Both the position numbers and the translations under genes were made by a program. From a virus (lineage: Duplodnaviria > Heunggongvirae > Uroviricota > Caudoviricetes), in the IMG/VR virus record IMGVR_UViG_2693429668_000006: a stretch of DNA of 64,000 nt; one strand, written 5' to 3'. The notes under the pieces were generated by a model. The model had not been told where the DNA came from and searched no databases. It worked only from the letters and a program-made list of their open reading frames with translations. Positions 2,544 to 8,081 of the stretch are shown piece by piece. Numbering within the stretch: the first letter of the stretch is position 1; every line of letters begins with the position of its first letter.

Positions 2544-3641
2544 AAAATTTACACGAATAAGCTCTGTTGATAGACGATCTCCCTTAAATTTGTGGTCAAT
2601 TTCGTCTAAATCCGGTTGCTCTACGATTGATGCGATGTACGTCGAGAAACTTTCTAAGGCGTCTCGCATCTCGTCCATATAATCGTGCCGGTCGTAGACC
2701 CGATCTATCCCCTCAAGACTGTGGTTCATGATTTTACGTGATACCTCCTGGCTTATGCCTAATGCTGGGAAGTAACTACGCGCAGTACGGCGCAAATCTC
2801 GGGGTGTAAATGGCTCAAGCTCCATCAGTTCTGGTCGTTCCAGAATACGACGTAATGCCTGGGCTATTGCCACTTTAGACATAGGAAGGTCTTTCCCGAT
2901 TTTTTTATTCGAAGGCACGAGCCACTGGCTGTCTTTACCATATTCGAACAACTCTTCAATACAAGTGCGCATTAATGAGCTTAAAGGCAGAGAATGCTCA
3001 CGGGCAGATTTGTTCCTCTTGCCTTGATTCCAAACCCCACGCTTAAGATTGAACTCACTTTTTTTAGCCCGCAGTACTTCGTCAGGTCGTCTTGCGGATA
3101 CAAGACATAGCCTGGCCGCCCATTTTGTACCAGCGCACACATTGAAGTAGTCCCATATATTCCAGAACACCCATACCTCTGCGTCGGTCAGCTTCCGCTC
3201 GCGAGGTGTGGGCTTTGCGCCACCGGCAACTTTGTTAAGTGACATATCGTTTAACGGTGACACGTCTATCATCCCCTGGAAGGCGCACCAGCTAAGGAAC
3301 TGCTTCATCAGAGAGAAAACGCGGCGGCCCATAACAATTTTGCCATCCAGTATTAGTGGGTTGACCAGTTGGTTCACCATGAACCTATTAATGTCACTTA
3401 CTTTTACATCGGCAATGTGCGGCAAAACATGTATCAAAATACAATGAACAGCGATCTCTGGCCGACGTCTGGTTATCAGCAGAGATAAGCGAGTGAATAA
3501 CATGAATGCGTCCGAGAATCTCATGTCATTGCTGACCTGGGAGATCATAACGGCCTGCATTTGAGATGCTCTTTCGAGATACTCTATCGCCTCTTTTGAG
3601 GTGTTCTCCGCAGCGCGTGCTCTGTCAAAGCTATTTTTCAT
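2538..3641 (-). CDS. tyrosine recombinase / phage integrase
   Basis: C-terminal region RDLRRTARSY...HSLEGIDRVYDRHDY resembles tyrosine recombinase catalytic region; true start may be an internal Met. Confidence 0.7.
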   Translation of the reverse strand: MKNSFDRARAAENTSKEAIEYLERASQMQAVMISQVSNDMRFSDAFMLFTRLSLLITRRRPEIAVHCILIHVLPHIADVKVSDINRFMVNQLVNPLILDGKIVMGRRVFSLMKQFLSWCAFQGMIDVSPLNDMSLNKVAGGAKPTPRERKLTDAEVWVFWNIWDYFNVCAGTKWAARLCLVSARRPDEVLRAKKSEFNLKRGVWNQGKRNKSAREHSLPLSSLMRTCIEELFEYGKDSQWLVPSNKKIGKDLPMSKVAIAQALRRILERPELMELEPFTPRDLRRTARSYFPALGISQEVSRKIMNHSLEGIDRVYDRHDYMDEMRDALESFSTYIASIVEQPDLDEIDHKFKGDRLSTELIRVNFS

Positions 3642-6371: not shown

Positions 6372-6490
6372 TAATTTGTCTCCATGTTTAACTGCTGCGA
6401 TCTAATCAGGAACATGAAGGCAGTCTAACGCTGCCTCGGATCAAAGCGATAAAACGATACGTGAATATAACTAAGTGTCAACAAATCAAA

Positions 6491-6515
6491 AAAGGGGCCG
6501 AAGCCCCTTTGAATT
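6491..6515 (-). terminator. rho-independent terminator downstream of tRNA cluster
   Basis: Hairpin GGGGCCGAAGCCCC (6494..6507) followed on minus strand by TTTTTTGATTT. Confidence 0.5.
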
Positions 6516-6584
6516 TTGCGCTGAAAAAAGTGTTGCTAGGATGTTAGCAAGCTATGGTTAAGAACGTCTGCCGTAATTGTCTAT

Positions 6585-6662
6585 CACAGCGTTGAGCGGT
6601 CTGGTTTATGTTAGCGGAGTCTTAATCTGGTTGATTAAAAGGCCAAACCGCTCAACGCTGTG
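6585..6662. repeat. long inverted repeat (16 bp perfect arms, 46 nt loop) flanking tRNA cluster
   Basis: Arms CACAGCGTTGAGCGGT (6585..6600) and ACCGCTCAACGCTGTG (6647..6662). Confidence 0.6.
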
Positions 6663-6664
6663 TC

Positions 6665-6751
6665 TGGCGGAGAGTAATGGAATCGAACCATCATCGTTTG
6701 CACAATGGGACGGTTTTCAAGACCGCTTGAGCACCATGCTCCCTACTCTCC
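6665..6751 (-). tRNA. tRNA-Ser-like (anticodon UGA), type II, 87 nt
   Basis: Acceptor GGAGAGT/ACTCTCC, anticodon loop CTTGAAA, T-loop TTCGATT, 3' GCCA; hand-folded, D-arm not fully resolved. Confidence 0.5.
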
Positions 6752-7045
6752 AATTGTGTTGTGTGCTCCGTTTCGTGGAGCTAACGGCGGGTGATCAGAC
6801 CGCACCAGGTTGGACGTATTTCAGCGTTATGCTGTTGCAAGAGAGCCAAATTGTGATGGCCGGTGCTGATCTCCGGCATTGCCTACGTTAGCGGCCTTCA
6901 GGCAGTTCATCCGCTTGCTTCTACGTCGCACATCAGCCTGTGCATTCACCACAATGTTGAGAACACTGGTTGTCACGCTGCAACGCAACATTATATTCAT
7001 AAATTGGGATATGAACCCGTTACGCCAATGTTCTCAATATTATGT

Positions 7046-7121
7046 TGGTGCCGGTTAACGGACTTGAACCGCTGGCCATTTGCTTACAAAGCGACTGCTC
7101 TACCAACTGAGCTAAACCGGC
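7046..7121 (-). tRNA. tRNA-like, possibly tRNA-Thr (UGU), with imperfect anticodon stem (possible pseudo-tRNA)
   Basis: Good acceptor (GCCGGTT/AACCGGC), D-arm and T-arm, 3' ACCA, but anticodon stem GTCGC/GCAAA pairs at only 3 of 5 positions. Confidence 0.4.
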
Positions 7122-7125
7122 AATT

Positions 7126-7212
7126 TGGTGGGGAGTGATGGAGTCGAACCACCCGAGTCGCAATGACAGTAGATTTACAGTCTACACCGCTACCTCTACG
7201 GACTAACTCCCC
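7126..7212 (-). tRNA. tRNA-Tyr (anticodon GUA), type II, 87 nt
   Basis: Acceptor GGGGAGT/ACTCCCC, anticodon stem-loop GTAGA-CTGTAAA-TCTAC, long variable arm, T-loop TTCGACT, 3' ACCA; differs from host tyrT. Confidence 0.6.
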
Positions 7213-7217
7213 TAAAT

Positions 7218-7292
7218 TGGCGATGGTGGGTGGATTCGAACCACCGATCAGTTGGTTAACAGCCAACTGCTCTACCGCTGAGCTACACCATC
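7218..7292 (-). tRNA. tRNA-Asn (anticodon GUU), 75 nt
   Basis: Canonical cloverleaf: acceptor GATGGTG/CACCATC, D-arm GCTC-AGCGGTA-GAGC, anticodon stem-loop GTTGG-CTGTTAA-CCAAC, T-arm GGTGG-TTCGAAT-CCACC, 3' GCCA; sequence differs from host tRNA-Asn. Confidence 0.75.
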
Positions 7293-7556
7293 AATTCAGC
7301 ACTGCCAGTATTTATTACTCAGCAGTGCCAATCGCGGCGGTGTTAGTTTTTGCCAATAAACGCACCGCTACTTGCACTTTTCGTTAGTGCCAGACGTTTT
7401 CGACTTCGCTCAATAGAAGGCAAAATCTTTAAGTAGATGATGTTTCTGAGGACAGCACCTACTTTGTAATTTACATAATGCGGTGTATGGAATCATTTGT
7501 TGTGAAAACAGGCACCAATGGCAACAGTGGTTAAACCTACACAACAATCCTGTCTT

Positions 7557-7678
7557 CACAACGTTGAGGCCACTACCCCGATTGAATGTTTGCCCAACAT
7601 GTTACATATCAACGTTCGCCAGTATCTCTGTGAATAGAACCTTAGAATTGATAAAAATGTAATGGCCTCAACGTTGTG
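7557..7678. repeat. long inverted repeat (15 bp perfect arms, 92 nt loop) on other side of tRNA cluster
   Basis: Arms CACAACGTTGAGGCC (7557..7571) and GGCCTCAACGTTGTG (7664..7678); arm sequence related to element at 6585..6662. Confidence 0.6.
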
Positions 7679-8081
7679 TGCTGGCTAACCATACCAGCCG
7701 GGCTACGTCGCCGCTTTTTAACCCAGTATAAACGACATAATTGAACAAAATGACGTAACAGGATGGGCGGTCAGTGGCTAAGAATCCGGGAGTGATATGG
7801 AGTTGGAAATATACCGACCGCCCATTCTGTTACTTCATCGGAGAGGGCATGGGTGGTGCCGTATCATGCCCTCTCCTGCGTTCTGCAATCACACTCGCTC
7901 AGTGTGTCCCATTTCGGTAACGAGGCTGGAAACTGACCTCGCTGGTGTTTGGCTTATTAGGCTACTGCCAGATAGACTTCTTCGTTTGCACTTGTATTTA
8001 AGTTCAAACAGTCGCGTCTCAACGAAAACAAAGCCATCTTATACATAAAAGATAAGTAAGTAAATACTTATCGTGATGTTT

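Follow-up and report, generated by a model that had tools for sequence, protein, structure and literature searches.

We analysed a stretch of 64,000 nucleotides (nt) from a virus of the Caudoviricetes (IMG/VR record IMGVR_UViG_2693429668_000006), hereafter the window, and concentrated on its cluster of four transfer RNA (tRNA) genes and on the long hairpins that accompany them. The best explanation for positions 6491-7880 of the minus strand is that they form a non-coding unit of an SSU5-like phage-plasmid, in which four phage tRNAs would be made from one precursor. There is nothing unusual in the tRNA cluster as such, which relatives already have annotated. What our analysis adds is a family of hairpins that is apparently undescribed. 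No family of Rfam 15 matches these hairpins: a scan of the tRNA region of the window at E-values (E) up to 10, as well as scans of four and then three related loci, returned only tRNAs and, in the relatives, sub-threshold matches to STnc100. Nor did we find a description of them in the searched literature on the tRNAs and ban operon of P1, on SSU5-type elements, on pHCM2 and on hairpins of tRNA clusters. The hairpin family is real, conserved, selected at the RNA level, placed by a rule, and shared by unrelated temperate phages. The rule is that, wherever a run of tRNA genes stops, a hairpin stands in for the 'next tRNA' at the same tight spacing.

Three members of the family occur in the window. 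We call them S, which follows tRNA-Ser, T1, which follows tRNA-Thr, and U, which lies in the leader (Table 1). The initial annotation had reported two inverted repeats sharing a core sequence, at 6585-6662 and 7557-7678, and had taken them to bracket the cluster. Both repeats are present and related. Their arms of 20 nt (6585-6604 with 6643-6662 for S, 7557-7576 with 7659-7678 for U) are 95% complementary as DNA and form 20 uninterrupted pairs each as RNA of the minus strand, with the fold z-scores given in Table 1. The bracketing did not hold, since there are three members, each of which stands directly after a tRNA run or in the leader. The third, T1, has ~20 pairs with one mismatch, folds better on the minus strand (z -5.3) than on the plus strand (z -3.0), and is homologous to a stretch of the P1 locus (L001 2684-2777). 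The position of hairpin U is conserved in SSU5-like phages. All three share the base CACARYGUUGAG/CUCAAYRYUGUG, within a stem of ~20 base pairs (bp) that encloses a variable interior.

These hairpins stand out from the rest of the window. A covariance model of the stem only (R1) scored 50.5 bits on the minus strand and 43.7 on the plus strand for S, 45.5 and 30.4 for T1, and 52.5 and 42.6 for U, i.e. 7-15 bits more on the minus strand in each case, and it found exactly three members in 64 kilobases (kb). As all three belong to the training set of R1, the informative part of this result is that nothing else in the window matches. The 12-mer CACARYGTTGAG, with at most one mismatch, occurs 7 times where 1.4 occurrences are expected, a number reached in 0 of 100 shuffled sequences. 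Uninterrupted stems of at least 16 bp are nearly confined to 6585-7833 within the 64 kb, and block-wise shuffles give 0-3 of them. No U-tract follows S, T1 or U, hence they are not terminators; we rejected this reading, and the true intrinsic terminator lies at 6491-6510.

To identify where family members stand relative to tRNA genes, we used 61 non-redundant contexts of Asn, Tyr, Thr, Ser and Arg tRNAs from related loci. Another tRNA lies within 12 nt downstream in 23 of them. In 34 others, a hairpin of at least 14 pairs starts 0-2 nt past the CCA. Three further contexts, all of tRNA-Thr and scored 'none' by the script, have family hairpins with a bulge. This leaves a sole true exception among the 61, the tRNA-Asn of SSU5. 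Hairpin S follows tRNA-Ser in all 13 non-redundant contexts of this gene. The phage Cyrano illustrates the other side of the rule: its tRNA-Ser starts 8 nt past tRNA-Thr and there is no hairpin between them. The P1 group also has a tRNA-Ile (anticodon CAU, called Met by ARAGORN), which lies directly upstream of ban, away from the array, and lacks a hairpin. In SSU5 (L006 ~2640-2691), tRNA-Asn is the only tRNA and is followed by a decayed 5' arm of the S type, ACATAGCGCTGAACGGTTTGG, without its partner arm, which suggests the loss of a module made of tRNA-Ser and its hairpin. The comparison of relatives also bears out the expectation that the repeats are conserved with the tRNA cluster elsewhere: the hairpins are kept in both P1-like and SSU5-like elements.

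Family members can be sorted by arm sequence into classes, namely S after tRNA-Ser, T1, T2 and T3 after tRNA-Thr, N after tRNA-Asn and U in the leader, and further classes are found in phage contigs of ~40-45 kb. Several results point to these hairpins being RNA structures on the strand of the tRNA genes. In class U, for which we compared ten genomes, the interiors are barely alignable and the 20 pairs are retained. Three of these pairs show compensatory double changes, and the one-sided changes all produce G.U pairs on the tRNA strand and never A.C. A count of the first 20 positions of each arm in all six classes yields 22 different G.U states for the tRNA strand versus 4 for the other strand, and 10 positions have at least two types of Watson-Crick pairs. 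The asymmetry in G.U states is not an artefact of how the elements were collected, because the hairpin finder accepted both kinds of wobble.

The family extends well beyond the window. Its typical element starts its stem with the base CACAAC-G-(U/G/A)-U-(G/A)-AG, is paired at ~20 positions and encloses 30-80 nt of variable interior. We found it in the Punavirus elements P1, P7, D6 and Ro157c2, and in SSU5, pJN2-26, Cyrano and CMS-2020a. Pattern scans of IMG/VR gave 53 and then 69 loci, in overlapping lists that amount to ~100 loci in all. A scan of 185,579 species genomes gave 11 matches. Three of these are real, all in chromosomes of Rahnella or Ewingella, and the rest are due to chance or low complexity. 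Phages of ~40-45 kb with a lambdoid type of immunity carry a 71-nt member between the repressor gene and the early-left genes (L085; also L078, L081, L089, L108 and L109). In L085 (4380-5160), the order is: terminator of the repressor gene, pL-like promoter with repeated operators, open reading frame (ORF) of 50 amino acids (aa), terminator-like hairpin followed by U5, family hairpin, STnc100-like module, and early genes. There is no tRNA gene within 400 nt of the lambdoid-like family hairpins and none within 1,500 nt of the three Rahnella/Ewingella loci. Elsewhere, 3' fragments resembling tRNAs come after the family hairpin, or its loop contains a perfect mimic of a T-arm. Such mimics are found in P1 (L001 2917-3004, GGGUUCGAAUCCC), in L004 (~3400-3500, AGAGUUCGACUCUCU) and in Ewingella (L067 3300-3500, GUCCGUUCAAUUCGGAC), and the one of P1 shares a 13-mer with the T-arm of the stable RNA C of phage T4. 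The family is tied to early phage transcripts and to tRNA-like sequence generally, not only to intact tRNA genes. Many 3' arms of classes T2, T3, N and of the lambdoid type (e.g. L077 6907-6989) contain the motif (U)GCUCUUA(A)C, with a small hairpin of 5 bp ~14 nt further on; we take the GCUCUUA to resemble the boxA antitermination sequence of lambda. The three hairpins of the window lack the full motif.

As for function, the reading that we prefer, tentatively and as something short of probable, is that the hairpins are cis-acting processing signals in the tRNA precursor, cut by RNase III and/or RNase P. Here we infer co-transcription in the window, cleavage, and the identity of the nuclease. 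The homologous arrays of P1 and P7 lie within the C1-repressed ban operon according to the record annotation; on this annotation, therefore, the hairpins of these phages are co-transcribed with the tRNAs. Three long-stem hairpins would be built into the precursor, one in the leader and one directly after each of the two runs (Asn-Tyr-Thr, and Ser). Where there is no downstream tRNA to supply a site for RNase P, the hairpin would supply a site for an endonuclease, which could be RNase III, cutting inside the helix of 20 bp, and/or RNase P, cutting at the 5' side of its base. Trimming by exonucleases could then bring the tRNA back to the CCA that its gene encodes, while a stable helix would protect the end of the adjacent RNA. 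A GC-containing helix of 20 bp starting 0-2 nt past the CCA is expected to block 3' exonucleases, hence an endonuclease would have to act at the helix or within it for the tRNA to mature.

The two nucleases are both candidates. RNase III of E. coli is a symmetric dimer that takes ~22 bp of double-stranded RNA; in vivo, the median distance between its double-cleavage sites is 58 nt, with G-C/C-G preferred as the two pairs in the middle, and its sites can occur next to tRNAs (PMC6212723). The stems of S and U (20 uninterrupted pairs) and of T1 (~20, with one mismatch) are in the size range of ~20-22 bp. The base of the hairpins, CACAAC-GUUGUG, is dyad-symmetric around a central C-G/G-C, which would fit the preference of RNase III for its central pairs. 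This dyad could explain why the base is conserved in sequence while the distal stem covaries. The argument for RNase P as the candidate nuclease is that it already cuts between adjacent tRNAs at the same spacing. Furthermore, a purine follows every hairpin, as the discriminator base of a tRNA would. RNase P also processes hairpin-like RNAs, such as the precursor of 4.5S RNA, the C4 RNA of P1 and P7 and the precursor of the T4 tRNAs and RNAs C-D, and it takes off the terminator of leuX.

Several observations weigh against a role in processing. The family members without tRNA genes, together with hairpin U, which is 264 nt from the nearest tRNA, imply that forming tRNA 3' ends is not the only role of the family. 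No promoter for the tRNA unit was found in our scan of the window. A cut centred on the dyad would leave 6 bp on the side of the base, which is short for RNase III, and the hairpins are not followed by CCA, so that they are not ideal substrates of RNase P either. The conservation in sequence of the first 12 bp, next to a distal stem that covaries, is more than a purely structural signal would need. Other points concern the evidence that the structure belongs to the strand of the tRNAs. Class U shows a clear asymmetry between the strands (7 to 0), class T1 a weak one (3 to 2). The counts of pairs across classes (97% of the cells are paired, and 12 of the 20 pairs have changes on both sides) are partly circular, because the elements were chosen as hairpins.

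We compared the hairpins with systems that are already known. By mechanism, their closest kinds may be the RNase III processing hairpins of phage early transcripts and the punctuation of transcripts by RNase P. Like the former (T7 early RNA, the lambda N leader, sib, the stems of ribosomal RNA operons, DicF maturation), the family consists of helices of about two turns within long early transcripts, and the separations between the arms of the window hairpins are within the range of double cleavage in vivo (PMC6212723). The classical sites differ in that they usually have internal loops, whereas the stems of the window are perfect and their cleavage is a prediction. The likeness to RNase P junctions is that the hairpin occupies the exact place of the next tRNA, with 0-5 nt of spacing. 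The difference is that no CCA follows the helix and that most members have no T-loop. Among known small RNAs, we rejected DicF (RF00039), the C4 antisense RNA (RF01695) and YrlA (RF02553), none of which had a match in the window at E up to 10. In P1 and D6 there is also no match to DicF or C4, and the only match to YrlA (25.6 bits) lies over tRNA genes and not over a hairpin. The P1 record has a 'dicF-like region' in the leader of the ban operon (L001 3614-3715), which overlaps one of several long hairpins upstream of tRNA-Asn; it has no match to the Rfam DicF model at E up to 5.

By layout, the closest analogue is the tRNA cluster of T4 with its stable RNAs C and D (species 1 and 2). RNA D starts 1 nt past tRNA-Arg and RNA C a further 6 nt on, both on the same strand as the tRNAs, much as the window hairpins start 0-2 nt past the CCA. 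RNA C also carries a T-arm, as does the loop of one family member in P1. However, rnaC and rnaD have only chance-level short matches to the window, and the 13-nt match between T-arms, which concerns P1, is the sole similarity in sequence. RNAs C and D are also not long perfect hairpins, and the fold of RNA D is close to that of shuffled sequences (z -0.8). We thus rejected homology to rnaC/rnaD: the folds differ, the window has no sequence similarity to them, and only the position after a tRNA is shared. To our knowledge, the function of the T4 RNAs C and D is still unknown.

The layout of T4, with stable RNAs 1 and 6 nt past a tRNA, raises the alternative that the hairpins are genes for stable small RNAs, which would be released from the precursor and act in trans as regulators, sponges, or decoys for nucleases or tRNA-directed defences. 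We regard this as possible, yet unlikely. Parts of the interiors are conserved within classes, namely AAGACUCCGC in S and CACAGAG, UGGGC and AAUCGG in U, as would be expected of such genes, but the interiors remain the least conserved part of the hairpins and can barely be aligned between subgroups. The conservation peaks in the paired base and not in a single-stranded segment that could serve as a seed. The T-arm mimics in the loops, such as GGGUUCGAAUCCC in P1, and the existence of members without tRNA genes in other phages also fit a product acting in trans. Against this, the hairpins come with neither a terminator nor a U-tail, and one would expect RNase III to cut a perfect helix of 20 bp, so that it would not persist. 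The neighbourhood provides another argument in favour, because the modules next to the hairpins in P1, D6 and L085 resemble the prophage small RNA STnc100.

This resemblance deserves closer description. The module that follows the family hairpin in P1, in D6 and in a lambdoid-like phage matches STnc100/PasD (RF02076) with 29-40 bits, for a threshold of 47 bits, over model positions 31-147. The window shares with it two sets of short motifs, GGUGAAU followed by a small hairpin, and CCGG..CCGGC with CAUCA. The long hairpins, in contrast, are outside the matched part of the model. STnc100 and tRNAs are known to cluster in prophages (bioRxiv 10.64898/2026.05.13.724894). The spacer of the window gave no match to STnc100 at E up to 10, and therefore we did not file the window in this family.

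A broader reading, to which we give a similarly low probability, has two arms. In one, the hairpins would make up a modular RNA family across temperate phages of Enterobacterales, whose dyad-symmetric 12-bp base would be read by a specific factor and would define both the RNA ends of early transcripts and the joints at which unrelated lineages of phage-plasmids swap tRNA and small-RNA modules. In the other, excised stem-loops bearing T-arms would be trans-acting, tRNA-like decoys against host nucleases directed at tRNAs or against modification enzymes.

The lambdoid-like phages suggest that the hairpins might instead act on transcription, either by blocking the loading of Rho or by allowing antitermination of the nut or put type across the array and into the genes downstream. 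We consider this improbable. Their hairpin does occupy the position expected of nutL or putL within the early-left transcript, with a terminator-like hairpin and U5 directly before it, and in P1 the protein genes tciABC and ban are downstream of the array in the same operon. Many 3' arms carry GCUCUUA, whose resemblance to boxA we have presumed above, followed by the small 5-bp hairpin; but in these arms the boxA-like sequence is locked inside a helix of 20 bp, and the classes present in the window (S, U and T1) do not have it. The region between nun and cI of HK022, which we compared because of put, shows no related motif either, and GCUCUUA is present in some classes only, inside the helix. 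The minus-strand fold shows that the leader and array are packed with helices joined by short linkers over the whole 1.4 kb, as might suit an effect on Rho. Yet a strong terminator comes after the last hairpin of the window, without a gene between the two, and an action on transcription leaves the spacing of 0-2 nt from the CCA unexplained.

The arrays have been extensively reshuffled, within the SSU5-like phage-plasmids as well as between these and the P1 family. We observed 26 different arrangements of tRNAs and spacers among the loci examined, e.g. Asn-Ser, Asn-Tyr-Thr-Ser, Asn-Thr-Ser, Arg-Tyr-Thr-Ser, or Asn alone. The spacers between tRNA-Thr and tRNA-Ser range from 8 to 646 nt, and the longer ones are strings of family hairpins and small modules. 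Breaks in homology fall at CACAAC. For example, a shared module of 122 nt ends in CACAAC, which opens another long hairpin in L004 and L046, and in the window is followed by six nucleotides and then tRNA-Ser. CACAAY was found 4-6 nt upstream of tRNA-Ser in 12 of the 12 spacer arrangements inspected. The motif could be a signal or a scar of recombination. In the window, CACAAY stands at 6758-6763 and at 7499-7504; further copies of it in the leader, not belonging to hairpins, are able to pair with a nearby GUUGUG. In P1, a 3' remnant of tRNA-Thr is located ahead of a hairpin of the T1 type. Identical alleles of tRNA-Thr are found in P7 and in SSU5-like loci, and near-identical tRNAs and hairpins are common to the P1 and SSU5 lineages, which are unrelated. 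These shared alleles and breakpoints indicate that the array was exchanged between two unrelated lineages of phage-plasmids, with the bases of the hairpins coinciding with the joints.

Such patterns could mean that the hairpins act as DNA, either as joints for recombination or as remnants of a mobile tRNA cassette, their 12-bp palindromic ends being recombinase sites or regions of microhomology. The diversity of arrangements and spacer lengths, the breakpoints at CACAAC, the CACAAY ahead of tRNA-Ser, the near-identical elements in the P1 and SSU5 lineages and the tRNA-Thr remnant of P1 all speak for it. Still, we find this even less probable than an action on transcription. There is no transposase or dedicated recombinase: the sole nearby integrase, ~3 kb away, is of a generic phage type that matches PF00589 only, and P1 has no integrase in the ban operon. 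We saw no dispersed copy and no target-site duplication. Integron attC sites were rejected, as the core sites R'' (RYYYAAC) and R' (GTTRRRY) are at neither end of the three hairpins on either strand, and so was a miniature inverted-repeat transposable element, since R1 finds only three clustered copies in 64 kb. With no transposase, dispersed copy or attC-type site, we read the pattern as recombination at a conserved sequence and not as a mobile element. Moreover, the pairing extends 8-10 bp past the conserved ends, covaries, and is biased towards G.U on the tRNA strand, which argues for selection on RNA. It is important to highlight that the DNA-level reading is compatible with processing, of which recombination would be a side effect, and is not a full alternative to it. 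The initial annotation had offered processing signals, small structured RNAs or remnants of a mobile cassette. The first two are viable, given the signs that the tRNA strand carries a structured RNA, and the third survives only as modular reshuffling at the hairpins.

Finally, that the hairpins are functionless, i.e. neutral palindromes kept by descent beside useful tRNA genes, is highly improbable: SSU5 did lose the hairpin after its tRNA-Asn, but in diverged genomes, where the interiors cannot be aligned, stems of 20 bp are maintained by compensatory changes, only one of the 61 contexts breaks the position rule, and the family is found in several unrelated phage lineages.

The tRNA genes call for fewer comments. 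ARAGORN called the four minus-strand genes proposed earlier (Ser-UGA, Thr-UGU, Tyr-GUA and Asn-GUU), and RefSeq annotates all of them on a plasmid that is 99.8% identical, the Ser gene as tRNA-Ser. The Rfam scores of Asn, Thr and Tyr are all above the threshold of the tRNA model RF00005, which is 29 bits (Table 1). The non-canonical member had been thought to be tRNA-Thr. Its anticodon stem indeed contains two non-standard pairs, G.A and C.A, in the Rfam alignment. However, the window has a minor allele: the common alleles in ~40 related loci are the fully paired CCTGC/GCAGG and GTCGC/GCGAA, and the GCAAA of the window, with its C.A mismatch, is a rare one-step derivative present in 3 of the ~40 loci. 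The least canonical tRNA is tRNA-Ser, not tRNA-Thr. Its best Rfam match is the model for selenocysteine tRNA (tRNA-Sec), with 44.8 bits for a threshold of 47, because its D-arm has a stem of 5-6 bp and a loop of 4 nt; its anticodon UGA reads Ser codons. The annotators of the D6 record report that tRNAscan-SE assigned no amino acid to the homologue of this gene. The Sec-like tRNA-Ser is kept after the same hairpin in P7, D6 and SSU5-like elements.

In the ORFs of the window, which have 45.6% G+C, ACA makes up 26% of the Thr codons and UCA 20% of the Ser codons, i.e. about twice the values of E. coli. The ordinary explanation of phage tRNAs as codon supplements therefore fits Thr-UGU and Ser-UGA. 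Phage tRNAs are now viewed both as codon supplements and as counter-measures to anticodon nucleases of the host (PMC11464382). That the four sequences are unlike the host isoacceptors is supported indirectly. When the cluster was searched with blastn against 5,426 complete E. coli genomes, matches were found in only 1,070, with 810 of the matching places on plasmids; hence the isoacceptor genes of the core chromosome are too divergent for this search to detect. A diverged pair of tRNA-Asn and tRNA-Thr (~84% identity) is present in a lambdoid prophage of E. coli E2348/69 (L075 2386-3350), between the genes for the Q antiterminator and an HNH endonuclease on one side and the holin gene on the other. 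This pair is followed by a different hairpin, outside the family, which starts 7 nt past the CCA.

The interval 6752-7045, which had been left unassigned, turned out to consist of hairpin T1 and a mosaic spacer of 195 nt homologous to the upl/plp region of P1. Overall, this spacer folds no better than shuffled sequence (z -1.1), and an Rfam scan of it at E up to 10 matched no family. The part at 6757-6878 is common to P1 and 10 other loci, that at 6850-6878 to 23 loci, and the first 68 nt of the spacer are found only in the closest relatives. Some pieces recur in other phages: the trailer GUGAAUGC with its small hairpin, and the 5-bp hairpins, each followed by CAYCACAAY. In P1, in D6 and in a lambdoid-like phage, they belong to the modules with sub-threshold STnc100 matches. 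In the P1 record (NC_005856), the strand opposite the homologous region (L001 2465-3034) bears two annotated ORFs, upl and plp. There, plp runs antisense to two hairpins as well as to 30 nt of tRNA-Thr, and has a non-ATG start; in relatives, Plp is split across frames or broken by stops; and Upl is truncated at both ends in the window. Judging from the sequences, upl and plp are probably annotation artefacts over non-coding RNA. On the minus strand of the window, an ORF of 57 aa (6827-7000) begins within the loop of a hairpin.

The tRNA region matches SSU5-like phage-plasmids of Enterobacteriaceae. Its best overall match is the E. coli plasmid p19KM1803_1 (NZ_CP151018.1), with 99.8% identity across the tRNA cluster, and the best phage records are the Escherichia phages CMS-2020a and Cyrano. 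The order of genes is the same as in SSU5, pJN2-26 and Cyrano, with an ATP-dependent DNA ligase gene and several small ORFs upstream on the minus strand. Two further hairpins of the leader, V and the perfect hairpin directly upstream of it (7750-7838 and 7840-7876), have arm sequences unrelated to the family, and R1 does not detect V. SSU5-like loci have kept hairpin V at a distance of ~460 nt upstream of tRNA-Asn, with compensatory changes at 5 positions, and in the window its plus strand folds slightly better. At the other end of the unit, the trailer at 6511-6584 is conserved in Cyrano and not in CMS-2020a. Together with the terminator, it has the shape of a small RNA derived from a 3' trailer, of the 3'ETS-leuZ type. 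Upstream of the unit, at 8051-8072, the palindrome GATAAGTA-TTTACT-TACTTATC is followed by TTTTAT on the minus strand, just past the stop of an upstream ORF of 96 aa. Its role could be that of a weak terminator or of an operator. Related loci have this palindrome in a longer form ~730 nt upstream of tRNA-Asn.

Table 1. Features of the tRNA unit and of its surroundings in the window. Folding energies are in kcal/mol and z-scores are relative to shuffled sequences.
Feature	Position	Strand	Evidence	Remarks
Intrinsic terminator	6491-6510	minus	Terminator scan and fold	AAAGGGGCUUCGGCCCCUUU followed by a U-run; closes the unit
3' trailer	6511-6584	minus		Between S and the terminator; small hairpin UUGCUA-ACAUCC-UAGCAA (6533-6550) and U-run, seen in the minus-strand fold of 6485-6664
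Family hairpin S (78 nt)	6585-6662	minus	Inverted repeat; -40.1, z -9.8	Starts 2 nt past the CCA of tRNA-Ser
tRNA-Ser (UGA)	6665-6751	minus	ARAGORN	Class II; atypical D-arm (stem of 5-6 bp, loop of 4 nt)
Mosaic spacer	6752-6949	minus		Between hairpin T1 and tRNA-Ser
Spacer piece	6758-6781	minus		Small hairpin GCUCC-ACGAAAC-GGAGC, then ACACAAC
Spacer piece	6850-6877	minus		Small hairpin GCCGGAGAUCAGCACCGGC, then CAUCACAAU
Spacer piece	6928-6949	minus		Trailer GUGAAUGC, with small hairpin GCACA-GGCUGA-UGUGC
Family hairpin T1 (95 nt)	6950-7044	minus	Inverted repeat; -36.7	Starts 1 nt past the CCA of tRNA-Thr
tRNA-Thr (UGU)	7046-7121	minus	ARAGORN; Rfam 63.8 bits	4 nt past tRNA-Tyr
tRNA-Tyr (GUA)	7126-7212	minus	ARAGORN; Rfam tRNA 41.6 bits	Class II, long variable arm; 5 nt past tRNA-Asn
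tRNA-Asn (GUU)	7218-7292	minus	ARAGORN; Rfam tRNA 75.4 bits; RefSeq tRNA on the 99.8% identical plasmid	Heads the run
Leader hairpin	7298-7329	minus	Minus-strand fold of 7293-7900	Followed after 5 nt by the start of tRNA-Asn
Family hairpin U (122 nt)	7557-7678	minus	Inverted repeat; -44.7, z -6.3	In the leader, 264 nt upstream of tRNA-Asn
Hairpin V	7750-7838	not resolved	Inverted repeat	Arms of 26 nt with a differing sequence, GUAACAGAAUGGGCGG...
Perfect 12-bp hairpin	7840-7876	.	Inverted repeat and fold	Directly upstream of V

P1- and SSU5-type phage-plasmids are common in E. coli of clinical and animal origin, and this cluster or its relatives are present in the 1,070 of 5,426 complete genomes mentioned above. 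If the hairpins prove to be ordinary RNase III sites, their description will be a tidy but modest addition. In any case, the family could join the libraries of RNA families, and upl and plp of P1 probably should not be annotated as proteins. The excision of tRNAs from long phage transcripts is largely unstudied outside T4, and a conserved hairpin located exactly where a downstream tRNA is missing provides a handle on how phages excise their tRNAs.

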